From positions 1 through 43,691 of IMG/VR virus record IMGVR_UViG_2645727945_000025: DNA of 43,691 bases; one strand, 5' to 3'. Each line of letters opens with the position of its first letter. Positions within the stretch are counted from its first letter, which is position 1. Origin of the DNA: a virus. Lineage: Duplodnaviria; Heunggongvirae; Uroviricota; Caudoviricetes. Below the pieces are notes generated by a model, which did not search any database, was not told the origin of the DNA, and saw only the letters and a list, made by a program, of their open reading frames with translations. Shown piece after piece: positions 1,369-40,885 of this stretch. Both the position numbers and the translations under genes were made by a program.

Positions 1369-1444
1369 GCCGATATAGCTCAGTTGGTAGAGCAGCGCAT
1401 TCGTAATGCGAAGGTCGTAGGTTCGACTCCTATTATCGGCACCA
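1369..1444 (+). tRNA. thrW: tRNA-Thr (anticodon CGU)
   Basis: 76-nt sequence GCCGATATAGCTCAGTTGGTAGAGCAGCGCATTCGTAATGCG...GGCACCA folds as a cloverleaf with CGT anticodon and encoded CCA; classic phage integration target. Confidence 0.9.
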
Positions 1445-12060: not shown

Positions 12061-12777
12061 TCAAACCAGCCTTAGTTTTGTCTCAATTGCAACGCCTATA
12101 ATCTTGCAGTTTCCATTGATTGGCACGAGAGGCCATGCAGGATTAAGTCCCTTGAGGTATTTATTTCCGCCGTCGATTATCAGCTTCTTGAATGTTGCTT
12201 CGTTAGAGTCAGAAAGTTTTGCTATGACCAAGCTGCCGTTGATCGCCTCCCTTCCGGTATCGAAAAGAACGAATGTTCCCTCTGGAATGCTTAACCCAAC
12301 CGGTGCCGTCATTGAATCACCTTCCACTTTAAGCCAGAACGCATTACCTTGAATATGCGCGTCAGACTCAAGCCAAACATCTATGTCTTTAATGGTGTAT
12401 GGTTCGCATGCTTCACACCACGAGCCAGCCTGGATACTGCTTAACACCGGATACCTCTTTCCTGCTCTGTATTCCCCTGCATACCTTACGTTGGCATCGC
12501 TCTTAAGGCTTTCTGCCTGTTCTGCAACCTTGGCAGCAATTGACTGGCTAAAATCAGCAATTGAGACTTGCAACAATCGTGCAAAACCAGATGCAACCTC
12601 AACGTTTAGCGCGTTTCTGCCATTAAGATAATGCCCTACCGCTCCTTGGGTGATACCCAGTTCATCAGCGATTGAGTATTGGGTTATTCCCAATTCTTTC
12701 TTTTTTGACTCATACAAAGCCTTAAGACGCTTAGCGTCTTCGAGCTGTTCTGTCGTCAGTGATTTTTTATTTTCCAT
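12061..12777 (-). CDS. cI: CI repressor (HTH plus S24 LexA-like autocleavage domain), 238 aa
   Basis: Recalled similarity to lambda CI throughout (LTTEQLEDAKRLKALYE..., FWLKVEGDSMTAP..., C-terminal S24 domain). Confidence 0.9.
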   Translation of the reverse strand: MENKKSLTTEQLEDAKRLKALYESKKKELGITQYSIADELGITQGAVGHYLNGRNALNVEVASGFARLLQVSIADFSQSIAAKVAEQAESLKSDANVRYAGEYRAGKRYPVLSSIQAGSWCEACEPYTIKDIDVWLESDAHIQGNAFWLKVEGDSMTAPVGLSIPEGTFVLFDTGREAINGSLVIAKLSDSNEATFKKLIIDGGNKYLKGLNPAWPLVPINGNCKIIGVAIETKLRLV

Positions 12778-12877: not shown

Positions 12878-12883
12878 GTGCAT

Positions 12884-13078
12884 ATGATTCGAATGACACT
12901 TGCCGATTACGCCAAAATCCATGGACAGGCTAAAGCAGCCAGTGACTTTGGTGTAATCCAGTGCGCTATCAGCAAGGCCATTCTGGCAGGCCGTAACATC
13001 ATGGTTACGGTAAAGCCTGATGGCAGTGTGATTGGAGAGGAAGTTCGTCCTTTCCCAAGCAACAAGAAAAACAAATAG
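12884..13078 (+). CDS. cro: Cro repressor (64 aa)
   Basis: Recalled similarity to lambda Cro ([11 protein letters not shown]...FPSNKK); GGAGAG RBS. Confidence 0.85.
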
Positions 13079-13084
13079 TAACAC

Positions 13085-13128
13085 CGCTCTTTAACAGTCA
13101 TGGTCATCATTCCCGCCGAAATGCGGGA
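13085..13128 (+). promoter_or_regulatory. nutR (boxA CGCTCTTTA plus boxB hairpin)
   Basis: CGCTCTTTA at about 13085-13093; boxB TCCCGCCGAAATGCGGGA at about 13111-13128. Confidence 0.55.
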
Positions 13129-13186
13129 ATACAACGCGCATACGTTGATGCGCATAACTTCTTATTTGTTAAGGAAATACTTACAT

Positions 13187-13465
13187 ATGGAACTTACAAG
13201 TACTCGCAAGAAAGCGAATGCAATTACAAGCAACATCCTGAATCGAATTGCTGTACGTGGTCAGCGAAAGGTTGCTGATGCATTAGGGATCAATGAATCG
13301 CAAATTTCGCGATGGAAAGACAGCTTTATCCCAAAGATGGCCATGCTTCTGGCTGTACTGGAGTGGGGTGTTGAAGACGAGGAGTTGGCGGAACTGGCTA
13401 AGAAAGTAGCCAGAATGCTGACAAAAGAAAAAGCCCCGAAGAACGGCGAATTCTTCGAGGCCTGA
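13187..13465 (+). CDS. cII: CII transcriptional activator (92 aa)
   Basis: Recalled similarity to lambda CII (SQISRWK...MLLAVLEWGV); AAGGAAA RBS before the internal ATG of track ORF 13100-13465. Confidence 0.8.
   Translation: MELTSTRKKANAITSNILNRIAVRGQRKVADALGINESQISRWKDSFIPKMAMLLAVLEWGVEDEELAELAKKVARMLTKEKAPKNGEFFEA
13421..13460 (-). terminator. oop-like antisense terminator overlapping the cII 3' end (approx.)
   Basis: Minus strand: CC(T)CGAAGAA-TTCGCCG-TTCTTCG(G)GG hairpin followed by CTTTTTCTTTTG; CATAAT -10-like element about 65 nt upstream. Confidence 0.4.
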
Positions 13466-13499
13466 TGTAGAAAGACTGGATCAATCCACAGGAGTAATT

Positions 13500-14144
13500 A
13501 TGACATACGAAAATGACAAATTCCAGGTTCTGAAGAGCATGAAGGTGCCAGATGATTTTAAATCAAATGGCTTTGTTTATGTGCTTTCGAATGAGTGCAT
13601 GCCAGGAATTTATAAGATTGGGATGACTAAGCATTCACCAGAAGTTAGGGCTAAAGAAATTTCAGCCTCTACTGGCGTTCCTAAGCCATTTAAGGTGATA
13701 GCAGCCTTTCATTCAAATAATCCCGCATCAGATGAAAAACTCATTCATAAAGCCTTTGCAAAAGAGAGGCTTAGTGATAATCGAGAGTTTTTCAAGCTTG
13801 AAGATAATGATCTTTCTGAATCTCTAAATGAAATAAGGGCGCTGGTTGGCCCTGAAAGAAATGGCGAGACGGCAGAATACGCAATTTACGACTCATTCAT
13901 TTCTTTTCGCCATGAAAATGAGCTTGATCTTAATGAGGAGCTTATAGAGCAAGGTCTGGGTAGTGTAGTTGGTCATCTTCCTGCGGTGAAAAATTTCCTT
14001 ATTCGCGCCGGAATTGCTTACGCGAAGCAACTGATAAGCAAATATAACTCATCGATAGTTATTAATACAGATGGCAGTGTGGTGATGGTTAAGTCTCTTG
14101 AAGCCCAATGCTTTGATGCGGAGGTTGGAAATGAGCCTGGCTGA
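13500..14144 (+). CDS. T5orf172/GIY-YIG-superfamily domain protein (214 aa), moron between cII and O
   Basis: N-terminal motif GFVYVLSN...GIYKIGMT...R...F.V...E.LIHKAF...REFF; strong AGGAG RBS; AT-rich. Confidence 0.6.
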   Translation: MTYENDKFQVLKSMKVPDDFKSNGFVYVLSNECMPGIYKIGMTKHSPEVRAKEISASTGVPKPFKVIAAFHSNNPASDEKLIHKAFAKERLSDNREFFKLEDNDLSESLNEIRALVGPERNGETAEYAIYDSFISFRHENELDLNEELIEQGLGSVVGHLPAVKNFLIRAGIAYAKQLISKYNSSIVINTDGSVVMVKSLEAQCFDAEVGNEPG

Positions 14145-14973
14145 AGTATTTTACCTGCCGAAGAGTGAACCTGTTGAACAGGAGCGAAGAGTGGCTGATA
14201 TCGATGATGGTTACACCAGATTCGCTAACGAGCTGCTGGAAGCTATCGCAAGTGCCGATTTAACCGCTCGCCAGTTGAAAGTTATGCTGGCCTACGTCCG
14301 GAAAACATATGGATTCAATAAGAAAACAGATCGAATAGCCGATGAGCAAATTGCTCAGTTAACAGGACTGTCAAGGCAGAATGTTAACAAGGCTAAAAAA
14401 GAACTGATTTCAATGAATTGCCTGTTTATGGATGGAAATCAAATCGGTGTAAACAGTGAGGTATCTGCGTGGCAATTCAGCAAGTGTCTCCAAGTTAGCA
14501 ACTTTGTCTCGAAGTTAGAGACAAAAAATGTCTCCAAATTAGAGACACTCAATGTCTCGAAGTTAGAGACACACAAAAGACATTCTTTAAAGACAAAAGA
14601 AAATATTAATAACCCCCCTATATCCCCCAAAAAAGTTTCTCAGAAGTTCGACCCGCTAGAAACAGAGTTGCCTGATTGGTTATCAGCAGAAACATGGTTG
14701 TCGTGGGTTACCTATCGCAAGGAGATAGGTAAGTCGATCAAGTCTAAGCAAAGTGTCACTCAGGCTATCAACGTTCTAAGCAGAAGTCTGGAGAAGGGAT
14801 ATACACCTGAAGAAATTATAAACCAGAGCATCGCCAGTGGTTGGCAGGGGATTTTTGAGCCCAAGACTTCAAAGGGGAAATCTCAACCGAGGCCGCAGCA
14901 TCGAGCTATGCAGGAAAACTTTGCCACCAAAGATTACGGACAAACTGAAATGCCTTCATGGGCGCAGGAGTGA
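14131..14973 (+). CDS. O: Replication initiator O (lambda O-like N-terminus)
   Basis: N-terminal similarity to lambda O (DDGY.R..N.LLEA...ADLT.RQ.KV.LA..RKTYG.NK..DRI); ori iterons inside the gene; start at Met12 (alternative 14098). Confidence 0.8.
   Translation: MSLAEVFYLPKSEPVEQERRVADIDDGYTRFANELLEAIASADLTARQLKVMLAYVRKTYGFNKKTDRIADEQIAQLTGLSRQNVNKAKKELISMNCLFMDGNQIGVNSEVSAWQFSKCLQVSNFVSKLETKNVSKLETLNVSKLETHKRHSLKTKENINNPPISPKKVSQKFDPLETELPDWLSAETWLSWVTYRKEIGKSIKSKQSVTQAINVLSRSLEKGYTPEEIINQSIASGWQGIFEPKTSKGKSQPRPQHRAMQENFATKDYGQTEMPSWAQE
14484..14615. repeat. Origin of replication: four ~19-bp iterons (TGTCTC-N7-GAGACA) plus AT-rich tract
   Basis: Tandem copies at about 14484-14502, 14504-14523, 14528-14548, 14550-14572, then an A/T-rich stretch. 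Confidence 0.65.
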
Positions 14974-32179: not shown

Positions 32180-32807
32180 GCACCTCAGCAAAGCTGTGTA
32201 CTGCAAAGGCGGCAGTGATAGCGGAGCAAAAGAGCAGGCCCGCGCAACTGAAAAGGGCATCGAACTGCAGCGTGAAATGTGGCAGACGAACATGCAAAAC
32301 CTTGCACCGTTCACGCCACTCGCTCAGCAGTACGTATCACAGCTGCAGAATCTTTCCTCTCTTCAGGGGCAAGGTCAGGCGCTTAACCAGTATTACAACT
32401 CTCAGCAGTATAAAGACCTTGCAGGGCAGGCGCGTTACCAGAGTCTGGCAGCAGCAGAGGCAACGGGTGGATTAGGCTCTACAGCAACAGGAAACCAGTT
32501 AGCAGCAATCGCACCTACACTCGGTCAAAACTGGCTGTCAGGTCAGATGAACAACTACAACAATCTGGCAAATATCGGCCTTGGTGCTCTTACAGGTCAG
32601 GCAAACGCCGGACAGAACTACGCTAACAACGTCAGCCAACTGTATCAACAGCAGGCGGCAGCATCTGCGGCTAATGCGAATAAACCATCAGGATTTCAGA
32701 GCGCCTTGGGTGGAGCGGCAGCAGGTGCAGCTGCAGGTACTGCAATCATGCCTGGTTGGGGTACAGCAATTGGTGCTGGCGTCGGTCTTCTTGGTTCACT
32801 TTTTTAA
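32154..32807 (+). CDS. Ejection protein (P22 gp7-like)
   Basis: Gln/Asn/Ala-rich low-complexity protein with Gly-rich C-terminus, in synteny. Confidence 0.8.
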   Translation: MLIFQIANKHLSKAVYCKGGSDSGAKEQARATEKGIELQREMWQTNMQNLAPFTPLAQQYVSQLQNLSSLQGQGQALNQYYNSQQYKDLAGQARYQSLAAAEATGGLGSTATGNQLAAIAPTLGQNWLSGQMNNYNNLANIGLGALTGQANAGQNYANNVSQLYQQQAAASAANANKPSGFQSALGGAAAGAAAGTAIMPGWGTAIGAGVGLLGSLF

Positions 32808-37522: not shown

Positions 37523-37696
37523 ATGATAGTCAAGTCAGACGCACCAAAGTACCCTTTGCGCATCCCATTAGAGGTTAAGTTAGCAATCGAGAAGTCAGCG
37601 AAAGAAAATGGTCGCTCAATAAATACCGAGATGGTAATGCGGTTAGTGGATAGTTTAAGGCGGGATAGTTCTAAAGGTAATCTAGCAAAAAGTTGA
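37523..37696 (+). CDS. arc: Arc-like ribbon-helix-helix repressor (57 aa)
   Basis: GGAGG RBS; RHH motif ...PLRIPLEVKLAIEKSAKENGRSINTEMVMRL; directly upstream of ant. Confidence 0.7.
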   Translation: MIVKSDAPKYPLRIPLEVKLAIEKSAKENGRSINTEMVMRLVDSLRRDSSKGNLAKS

Positions 37697-37726
37697 AGCC
37701 CCAACTGCTGTAACAGTCAGGGCTTC
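37695..37726 (-). terminator. sar-like antisense terminator in the arc-ant intergenic region (approx.)
   Basis: GAAGCCC/GGGCTTC stem; only on the minus strand is it followed by a T-run (AACTTTTTGC). Confidence 0.4.
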
Positions 37727-37758
37727 GGTATCAACAAAACTTACGAGGTATTATTGAT

Positions 37759-38649
37759 ATGTCAAGCTTAGCAAAGTCAACTGTAAATTGCACTAATAGC
37801 ATCATCATTTCTGACGTCAAGATTCATATGGATTCAGAGGGTCGTTACTCGCTTAATGACCTTCATGTAGCGTCTGGAAAGGAGGAAAAACATCAGCCAG
37901 CTTTCTTCATGCGTAGAAATGAAACTATTGAATTGATTAATGAAATTTTTAATTCTGCGGATATGCAGAATAAGAATCCCGTCCTTTCTAAGAAAGGTAG
38001 ATATGGTGGAACCTACGTGTGCAAGGAGCTTGTTTACTCCTACGCCATGTGGATTAGCGCAGCCTTTGCGCTGAAGGTTATCCGTGCATATGACGCAATG
38101 GTTACTACCACACAAGAGAGGAAGGCTATTGGCGGTAAAACTTCAGTAGCTGAACGCACACCGCTACGCGATGCAGTAAACATGTTGGTAGGAAAGAAAG
38201 GACTTCGCTATGACGATGCATACAATATGGTTCATCAGCGTTTTGGTATTGACAGCATTGATGAACTTTCAATTGAACAAATCCCGCTGGCCGTAGAGTA
38301 CATCCACAGGGTAGTGCTTGAAGGTGAATTCATCGGCAAACAAGAGAAGAAAACCAACGAGCTTTCTGCAAAAGAAGCAAACAGCCTTGTATGGCTATGG
38401 GATTATGCCAACCGCTCACAGGCATTATTCCGCGAACTGTATCCGGCGCTGAAACAAATTCAATCGAACTATTCCGGCAGATGTCATGACTGCGGTTATG
38501 AGTTCTCCCGTATTATCGATATAGCGAGAGACGTTTTAATCAATCACTCACGAGATGTTGATATCAATGAGCCAGACGGACCAACGAATCATTCCGCATG
38601 GATGAGACTTAAGAATAAAGAATTACCTCCTTCAGTACATAACTACTGA
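37759..38649 (+). CDS. ant: Antirepressor Ant (296 aa)
   Basis: Size and position after arc; KilA-N-like N-terminus. Confidence 0.85.
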
Positions 38650-38667
38650 CAGATAACCAACGCAACG

Positions 38668-38692
38668 ACCCAGCTTCGGCTGGGTTTTTTTA
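38668..38692 (+). terminator. Intrinsic terminator after ant
   Basis: ACCCAGC-TTCG-GCTGGGT hairpin followed by TTTTTTTAT. Confidence 0.6.
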
Positions 38693-38749: not shown

Positions 38750-40885
38750 ATGACAGACATTACAGCCAATGTGATCGTATCGATGCCTTCGCAACTCTTC
38801 ACTATGGCTCGTTCTTTTAAAGCCGTAGCCAATGGAAAAATTTATATCGGTAAAATTGACACTGACCCGGTAAATCCTGAAAACCAGATTCAGGTTTATG
38901 TGGAGAACGAAGACGGCTCTCACGTTCCTGTATCGCAGCCAATCATCATTAACGCTGCCGGATATCCTGTATATAACGGACAGATTGCCAAATTCGTAAC
39001 TGTGCAAGGCCATTCTATGGCTGTTTATGATGCATATGGGGCGCAGCAGTTCTATTTTCCTAATGTGCTGAAGTATGACCCTGATCAACTCAGGTCTGAA
39101 TTATCAGCTCAGGGTGGAGATAAGATTGTTGGTAGTTCGTATGGCGGAACCGTCTATACAGACTACAGTCCATCAGAATTCATTAAGTTTGCAGAATTCA
39201 CCGTCCCAACAAGTCTTTCAAACAATAGACAAGCCGTTAAATATATAGACGGATTTTGGTATGTATGGAATGGAACATTTCCATACAATACTGGAACGTC
39301 AAATCCTGGTAATAATGACACATGGAAATGCGTTGGACTTCTAAATGGTTTTTCGGTTAATGACGCTCAGAACTTTGGCTTCACAGGGGGTATGGACGAT
39401 GCACTTCCAGCGCTAAATGCGATGATTAGAAGCCCATTTTTTGAAATGTTTTTCCCTATTGGAAGTGAAATTAATATTTCGTCTGACTGGAATCTCCGTT
39501 CAAATTTATATATAAACTTTCACGGTTCAACAATCAACTGGATGGGTGCTGCTTTCTCAAGTTCTGATGTTGTGAATGGTAGCGAGATGGCTATTTTAAA
39601 TACGCCAAATTTTTCAGGTGGAACTACAGGGGCACTCGTAAACCTTCATCTGTCAAACTTAAATATTAAAGCAAATGATTACGCAATAGGCATAAGTGCA
39701 AGGAATATTACAAATTTCTCTATAGAGAATGTTTATGTAGAGAAAGCGCAACGTCAAGGAATTAATGTATCTAATTGCCAGAATGGATGTATTAATCAAA
39801 TAACTCTGAAAGATTGCTCTCCTTTATCTGATAAAGGATTTACTAGTTCACAGCTAGAGAGTTGGGGCGATGGATTGATTGTATGGTATGGAAGCACTAA
39901 CGTATCCATTGATAACATTAGAGTTGAATCAGGAAATAATTCACGAGGAGGTCGCTGCGGTATCTGTATCGATGGTTATGCTCCATCCGGAAAGCCAGAT
40001 TCACGCAATATTTCTGTAAATAACGCTTATGTTTACGGTTATGACAGGCCTATACATACCGAACTATGCGGTATTGTTACCGTAACTAACAGTGTTTTCG
40101 AATACAACTCAGGCTCTGACACGCATCACTTTTTGCAATGTGGTGTCGTCGTGTGGAATGTCCTTGAAACCACTACTTTTATCAACTGCACGTTTCGCAC
40201 AGATATGCGGTTTATGAAAAACTCAGGCGCTAAGGCGAAATTCATAAAATGTAATGTGTACAAAACATCAAGCACTGAGCCTATGTTTATAACAGGTACA
40301 GAGCAAACAGGTATAGTTAATTTTGATGACTGCTTACTTTCTCATGCCGGTGGTGAATGGGGGGCTTGGAACTGTTCATTAAGTTTTAATGGTTGCACGA
40401 TATCATCTGATTCTGCTGGATCTGTTATTAATTTTGGTAGCGAATCCATACCAAAAAATATCACTATTGTTAATTCACATCTGTTAAACACATCAATATC
40501 AGCACTGTTCGCACCTGGATTTACTGAAATTCATCTTTCTAATTCAACAATAAATGGAGATGTTAATTGCGGACCTTCTGCCAGACTTCGTGTAAATTCA
40601 TGCGATATATATGGAGTTGTTACATGCAATAGTGTAATGAGATACAACGGACAGAAACCAAATAAATTAATTTATTTGCAAAATGCAGACCAGCAATACA
40701 ATGGCATGTGGCTAGGAACGCGCCCACCACTAGGTGCTAGACCAGATGGATCTGGAGATTGGTTGAGGGGTGATATAGTTTTTAATCTCGACGCCATAGA
40801 GTCAACACCATTCCAATGGTATTGCGTAACCCCAGGATCGCCTGGAAGATGGGCTGTATCTGGAACTCTTGGCGCAGCTTCTTAA
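38750..40885 (+). CDS. Tailspike (P22 gp9-family head-binding N-terminus plus divergent receptor-binding domain), 711 aa
   Basis: N-terminal ~115 aa recalled as the conserved P22/HK620/Sf6 head-binding domain; remainder AT-rich with repetitive beta-strand-like segments. Confidence 0.9.

Follow-up and report, generated by a model that had tools for sequence, protein, structure and literature searches.

The cII locus of the window

The window is the whole stretch of DNA that we analyzed, 43,691 nucleotides of an IMG/VR virus record (IMGVR_UViG_2645727945_000025), and the region around cII in it has the standard lambdoid immunity-right layout. A gene for a CI-type repressor with Peptidase_S24 and HTH_3 domains is present on the minus strand (12061-12777) and is followed by cro (12878-13078) and by cII on the plus strand (13187-13465). 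The cII gene encodes a protein of 92 amino acids that matches Pfam Phage_CII over the full model length (2.5e-42), and it is 98.4% identical to the annotated HK620 gene. Next to it on the plus strand is a 214-aa ORF of 645 bp (13500-14144; Pfam T5orf172 2.3e-15, MUG113 4.3e-16), which PGAP names GIY-YIG nuclease family protein and which takes the place of O in lambda and of orf48 in P22. After the T5orf172 gene come genes for an O-like replication protein and a DnaC/IstB-like loader. There is also a boxA-like sequence, CGCTCTTTAA, followed by a hairpin TTCCCGC…GCGGGAA (13085-13131, plus strand), which falls within homology to the annotated HK620 nutR.

Opposite cII, on the minus strand, we found an element (13424-13525) that overlaps the cII 3′ end and precedes the next early-right gene. 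Its parts, in the order of leftward transcription, are a candidate promoter, a predicted RNA of 63-67 nt and a hairpin followed by a U-tract. The RNA is predicted from alignments with lambda, P22, BTP1 and phage L together with folds; it would start at G13489 (the position of lambda +1, 38675) or at 13486 (the position of the P22 5′ end seen by small-RNA sequencing) and run to about 13424, with its 3′ end within the U-tract, around 13426-13423. The part of cII that it would complement is the last 13 codons and the stop codon (13424-13465).

A candidate pO promoter overlaps the start of the T5orf172 gene

The original prediction placed a –10-like hexamer over the T5orf172 gene start, and the hexamer is indeed there: CATAAT (13502..13497, minus strand) covers the ATG of this gene (13500-13502), about 35 nt from the 14-bp hairpin. 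It is preceded by TG (13505..13504) and a T, and the resulting extended –10 (13505..13497) overlaps both the start codon and the second codon (ATG ACA). On the far side of a 17-bp spacer is a –35-like hexamer, TGGAAT (13525..13520, minus strand), which lies inside codons 7-9 of the T5orf172 gene and matches TTGACA at 3/6 positions. Because of this 3/6 match, pO is not among the promoters listed by a generic sigma-70 scan, and the case for a promoter therefore rests on homology and on comparison with other phages.

When we compared the site with other phages, we found that CATAAT over the downstream start codon is shared and that TGTCATAAT-N-ACTCCTGT is exactly as in lambda. P22, BTP1 and phage L keep TG-N-CATAAT as TGGCATAAT, and the extended –10 TG is present in every sequence class of the element that we describe below. 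The counterparts of the –35 hexamer are TGGTCA in P22 and BTP1 and TTGAGT in lambda. We also observed CCTGG(A/T), which gives the TGG of the –35, at an equal distance from the –10 in the unrelated T5orf172, hkaW/orf48 and Sf6 gp42 genes (minus strand CCTGGAA, 13520-13528, in the window, compared with HK620 L001, Sf6 L002 and P22 L125); this sharing may be chance or may reflect a promoter constraint on N-terminal codons.

Upstream of the –10, the pO region of the window has been replaced by T5orf172 coding sequence, and codons 7-9 of that gene supply the –35. In lambda, the effects of OOP were far weaker from an oop construct with 45 nt of upstream sequence (pO45) than from a construct that had 94 nt (pO94; PMC5869508), so the stretch from 46 to 94 nt before the oop 5′ end matters there. 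By analogy, the strength of pO and the expression of oop may differ here from those of P22 or lambda.

A leftward terminator hairpin lies within the last codons of cII

In the terminator scan, the minus strand at 13463..13431 reads AGGCCTCGAAGAATTCGCCGTTCTTCGGGGCTT, a hairpin (AGGCCTCGAAGAAT-TCGCC-GTTCTTCGGGGCTT) of 14 pairs, 6 of them G-C, with a loop of five bases (UCGCC) and a G-C-bounded core at 13461..13433. It is followed by TTTCTTTTGT, so that the stem and tract claimed earlier for 13421-13502 of this strand are both present. The U-tract of this putative tO, UUUUUCUUUU (13432..13423, minus strand), lies opposite cII Lys/Glu codons (AAAAGAAAAA), and the hairpin falls inside the last 13 cII codons. 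The site has the form and the place of oop-family terminators, which are rho-independent, lie some 55-80 nt past the start and are inside cII. Between 11000 and 16000 we found 8 terminator-like sites as compared to 5.1 ± 2.4 in shuffles, a number that is not above chance; the tO stem is by far the longest among them.

Folding of the minus-strand RNA (13488..13421) gave –23.3 kcal/mol with z = –3.66, and 1/200 shuffles folded as well; the tO hairpin folded alone gave –19.5 kcal/mol. A good fold is also obtained for the plus-strand RNA (–17.9 kcal/mol, z = –3.03), as would be expected if the hairpin were a feature of the cII message, either a 3′ stabilizer or processing site, a terminator for rightward transcription or a by-product of the amino acids encoded there. 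However, no T-run comes after the hairpin on the plus strand, and the site is therefore a terminator for leftward transcription only. The minus-strand fold is also the stronger one; its G-U pairs, such as U-G at 13458/13436, correspond to A-C on the plus strand, which cannot pair, and the U-run, the promoter and the RNAs detected in related phages all belong to the minus strand.

When we searched Rfam at gathering and at permissive thresholds, no family reached threshold at the site and there was no oop-named match. The best sub-threshold matches, to ctRNA_p42d (19 bits versus 50) and to GcvB (18.3 bits versus 42), were rejected as matches to a generic terminator.

The element is homologous to lambda oop

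In lambda, OOP RNA (38675..38599, with pO and tO) occupies the same site: it is antisense to the cII 3′ end, faces pR and lies before the next start codon. We found that a 30-bp core that holds the –10 and the RNA 5′ end, TGTCATAAT-N-ACTCC-N-GT-N-GAT-N-GATCCAG, is identical to lambda at 27/30 positions, and the three differences between the window and lambda fall among the four variable positions of this pattern (minus strands aligned: window TGTCATAATTACTCCTGTGGATTGATCCAG, lambda TGTCATAATGACTCCTGTTGATAGATCCAG, NC_001416). The mutations that inactivate pO in lambda, at 38,683 and 38,683-87 (PMC5869508), fall in the –10 of that promoter, CATAAT at 38688..38683. The pO94 construct extends 94 nt rightward from the oop 5′ end, as far as base 38769 (PMC5869508), which places the lambda 5′ end at 38675, the G of GTTGAT; the start printed as 38685 in the same passage of that paper we took as a misprint.

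Both phages have the extended –10 TGTCATAAT, with TG one base before the hexamer, over the downstream start codon, both have a rho-independent terminator within cII, and the first 14 nt of the RNA are nearly identical, CTGT-N8-CCAG included. The lambda-like position and size had been put forward as mimicry; since pO and oop align base for base, they are borne out as homology. Beyond what had been predicted, the RNA of the window would be of the shorter P22 type and its promoter would combine an extended –10 TG with a weak –35. At about 65 nt as compared to the 77 nt of lambda OOP RNA (PMC12197685), it would be some 12 nt shorter because most of the 5′ stem-loop of lambda, about 15 nt, is missing. 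The overlap with cII is also smaller, approximately 42 nt in the window and 52-55 in lambda (52 bases in PMC5869508). The sequence of the terminator stem is unrelated to that of lambda, the –35 TGGAAT is weaker than TTGAGT, and the downstream gene is GIY-YIG/T5orf172 in the window and O in lambda.

An RNA of the same sequence class has been observed in other genomes

P22 carries the element at the homologous site, where RefSeq NC_002371.2 annotates a promoter (32346..32374) and a terminator (32277..32319), each as 'oop; similar to phage lambda'. Small-RNA sequencing published in 2026 (PMC13397905) detected P22C-oop, a minus-strand RNA of 63 nt (GAUUGAUCCAGUCUUUCUACAUCAGGCCUCAAAACUGUUCCCGCAGUCUUGAGGCUUUUCUUU), in infected samples only, at 653-1513 RPM, and the window matches it exactly over the first 30 nt. 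The window and P22 share the length class of oop, the U-tract and the place of the terminator in the c1/cII tail. In contrast, P22 has other sequence in the upper two thirds of the terminator stem, where five pairs have changed in a compensatory way and one P22 pair is mismatched; the cII tail differs as well, and downstream P22 has TGGCATAAT and orf48.

BTP1 is closer still. Between the predicted RNA start and the last base of the U-tract, a single base differs between BTP1 and the window (GTTGATTG versus GTGGATTG). Transcriptome data on S. Typhimurium D23580, in which BTP1 is a prophage, led to the report of an RNA named OOP-BTP1 at the 3′ end of its cII gene (PMC7067206); we found no start-site coordinates for it in the supplements of that paper. 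An RNA of the sequence class of the window has therefore already been observed, in another genome. Phage L is identical to the window over 13421-13502, from the –10 hexamer through the terminator, and its record annotates a terminator there.

Over the 85 bases from 13421 to 13505, 103 phage records have at least 99% identity, out of 176 records matched in all, and Bas106, HK446, HK542, HK544, mEp213, mEpX2 and others are 100% identical. The element is also present in 491 of 5426 complete E. coli genomes (about 9%). BTP1, HK620, Sf6, ST64T, L and Bas106 belong, like the window, to the class that we call C, and they differ from the window in their flanks only (cII body and downstream gene; BTP1 and L carry another cII type). 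Except for OOP-BTP1, these copies are unannotated or annotated as a terminator only, and among the records that we inspected oop is named in P22 only.

Taken together, these data make it very likely that the minus-strand segment 13424-13525 is the oop gene of a P22-like lambdoid E. coli prophage, with its pO, oop RNA and tO, and they support the original prediction of an oop-like antisense RNA signature at the cII 3′ end, with a promoter and RNA 5′ end homologous to those of lambda, P22 and BTP1. A chance pairing of a –10-like hexamer with a hairpin is ruled out by the base-for-base homology with these three phages. Our confidence is not higher mainly because the T5orf172 sequence upstream may have changed the strength of pO. 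The element belongs with the known oop genes of lambdoid phages, in the P22/HK620/BTP1 sequence class. The region should carry the label oop gene (pO, oop RNA, tO), as this lysis-lysogeny regulator is omitted by most automatic annotations. Its importance beyond annotation is small; of minor interest are the mosaic cassette, the compensated terminator and the –35 supplied by the T5orf172 gene.

Terminator pairing is kept while the encoded peptide changes

To compare the element across phages, we scanned IMG/VR for the core pattern and found at least 119 loci, or 124 loci with the reference phages included. These 124 loci carry 37 distinct versions of the transcribed region, which fall into four classes: A (lambda), B, C (the window, HK620, Sf6 and BTP1) and D (P22). 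Every version folds into a 5′ domain, a terminator hairpin and a U-run, and across the classes the isolated terminator hairpins range from –16 to –19.5 kcal/mol.

Using a register-corrected, N-padded alignment to count pairs in classes C and D, we found that 97.4% of cells are paired as compared to 33-57% in slid controls. Between the two classes, 5/14 terminator pairs are changed on both sides with pairing kept (G-C/A-U, G-C/A-U, A-U/C-G, A-U/U-A and U-G/G-C), and the covariation score is 0.297 versus 0.133 ± 0.025 in shuffles; these compensatory changes may stem from one segment replacement and not from many independent events. Two further pairs (C-G/U-A and G-C/C-G) are changed on both sides between classes A and B. 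The short 5′ stem has no covariation support between C and D (seven invariant pairs and one break, in BTP1).

The peptide encoded across the hairpin is APKNGEF in class C and PQDC[C/G]NS in class D, which are unrelated, while the hairpin and the U-tract that encodes Lys/Glu are kept. The constraint is therefore on the nucleic acid and not on the protein. This divergence also bears on the readings of the hairpin as a plus-strand feature: a peptide that is not conserved between classes speaks against a hairpin dictated by the amino acids, and together with the lack of a T-run and the weaker plus-strand fold it led us to reject a plus-strand terminator or a protein-driven hairpin. We give the plus-strand readings as a whole, the 3′ stabilizer or processing site included, next to no credence, and consider the hairpin as tO in what follows.

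The element lies in a mosaic cassette

When we followed homology outward from the element, we found that it breaks at both edges. On the right, the homology of HK620, Sf6 and most other matches to the window stops at 13505, right after ATGACA. On the left, homology to the window in E. coli prophages with other cII bodies begins at 13418, and BTP1 and L diverge just beyond the U-tract. The class C tail, TKEKAPKNGEFFEA, is joined to two different cII bodies, and a lambda-type tail is joined to two unrelated bodies, one of them an unrelated protein (…CHESKISRTDWRFIASVLCAFGMASD…). These homology breaks and tail swaps indicate that 13418..13505 is a cassette bounded by recombination junctions, and in Sf6 the core is annotated as 'bsq5; boundary sequence'. 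Four unrelated downstream genes start with ATGACA (lambda-type O, the 53-aa Sf6 gp42-like gene, the 48-aa hkaW and T5orf172), and there is no fixed pairing between these four gene classes and the four oop classes. In P22, BTP1 and L the downstream gene starts with ATGCCA, which still gives TG-N-CATAAT. The cassette is consistent with lambdoid genomes being modular, and also with selection that keeps the pO-oop-tO unit intact.

The same observations could be read in another way, in which the segment is mosaic boundary sequence plus the ribosome-binding region of the next gene, pO has been silent since T5orf172 replaced the –35 and the upstream sequence, and the hairpin is a relic. The Sf6 label, the exact breaks at 13505 and 13418 and the free combination of gene and oop classes are what this reading would lead one to expect, as are the 3/6 match of the –35, the negative promoter scan and the weakness of lambda pO45 relative to pO94. 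However, P22 and BTP1 have an equally non-consensus –35 (TGGTCA) and a downstream gene, orf48, that is not O, and yet oop RNA was detected in them. A silent promoter would also leave unexplained the extended –10 TG that is kept in every class, and a relic hairpin the terminator that is kept by compensatory changes while the peptide changes. We therefore consider a silent relic quite improbable and continue with an oop gene that is predicted to be active.

The T5orf172 gene is a rare neighbor of pO: we found it there in 1/183 phage records (Bas106), 4/116 viral contigs and 19/5426 complete E. coli genomes. It occurs in at least three left-hand contexts, with homology that starts at 13380, 13418 or 13475, and it could be a mobile, homing-type nuclease gene. 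A bolder proposal is that the 88-bp oop cassette (13418-13505) is an autonomous module whose edges are the terminator and the extended –10, and that its core is an insertion or homing site through which T5orf172 spreads between lambdoid replication modules. We regard this as a long shot; if it were true, any downstream gene would have to begin ATG-ACA or ATG-CCA, with a –35 in its first ten codons.

Proposed action of oop on cII and on rightward transcription

By analogy with lambda, pO (a weak –35, a 17-bp spacer and an extended –10) would drive leftward synthesis of an RNA of about 65 nt that ends at tO within cII. The predicted RNA has perfect complementarity over approximately 66 nt to the cII mRNA 3′ end and the 24-nt spacer before the next gene, and this spacer ends beside the Shine-Dalgarno sequence AGGAG (13490-13494) of the T5orf172 gene. 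Pairing of oop RNA with cII mRNA would produce a long duplex that RNase III could cleave; the cut cII message would then decay, CII would fall, pRE and pI would be activated less, and the outcome would be biased to lytic growth. The RNase III-dependent effect of oop on cII in lambda is credited to Krinke and Wulff (1987, 1990) and Krinke et al. (1991) in the papers that cite them (PMC7067206, PMC5869508 and PMC3985674), and OOP expressed alone abolishes CII activities in lambda (PMC5869508). Lowering of cII expression, as in lambda, is most likely what the oop gene of the window would do as well. We infer the transcription of the window copy, the exact ends of its RNA, its RNase III dependence and its possible LexA control.

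Polymerases moving leftward from pO may also run into rightward ones from pR, as proposed for the control of lambda replication (PMC3985674). It is conceivable that this act of transcription, which would interfere with pR transcription into the replication genes, is the main role of pO and that the antisense effect on cII is secondary. In lambda plasmids, inactivation of the pO –10 lowered copy number and increased pR read-through, and a raised level of oop RNA had little effect on replication (PMC3985674). The layout in the window is the same, with pO facing pR upstream of an O-like gene that contains three probable 24-bp iterons (14505-14576). However, pO is about 1 kb from these iterons here because the 645-bp T5orf172 gene intervenes, and the precise conservation of a terminator inside cII and the short, discrete RNA are better explained by a role of the RNA itself; in lambda, moreover, OOP alone acts on CII. 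We consider it unlikely that interference is the main role, and the two roles are not mutually exclusive; an antisense action on cII is the reading that we prefer.

Regulation of pO by LexA is a further point of comparison. A palindrome that resembles a LexA box, CTGT-N8-CCAG (13476..13491, minus strand), spans the predicted oop start site, where lambda has the same motif. PMC5869508 cites a sequence bound by LexA in lambda oop-pO, and in our literature search for the exact lambda site in pO this second-hand citation was the only one that we found. The pattern has two matches in the window as compared to 5.2 expected, which is not significant alone, and HK620 and Sf6 have CCGT in place of CTGT. 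Given the CCGT of these two phages and a frequency of the pattern within chance expectation, SOS control of the window copy is possible at most.

Other features of the window

The three 24-bp tandem repeats at 14505-14576 (plus strand, consensus TGTCTCGAAGTTAGAGACACACAA) lie in the O-like gene, encode the repeated peptide VSKLET and are probably origin iterons. The window matches E. coli chromosomes at 99.9%. Near its left end is a tRNA-Thr gene (anticodon CGT; 1369-1444, plus strand), which is probably the thrW-type attachment site of a P22-like prophage. On the minus strand at 37691-37757 we found a sar antisense RNA (Rfam RF00262, 67.4 bits versus a gathering score of 43), and this match indicates that the prophage has a P22-type immI (arc/ant) region.
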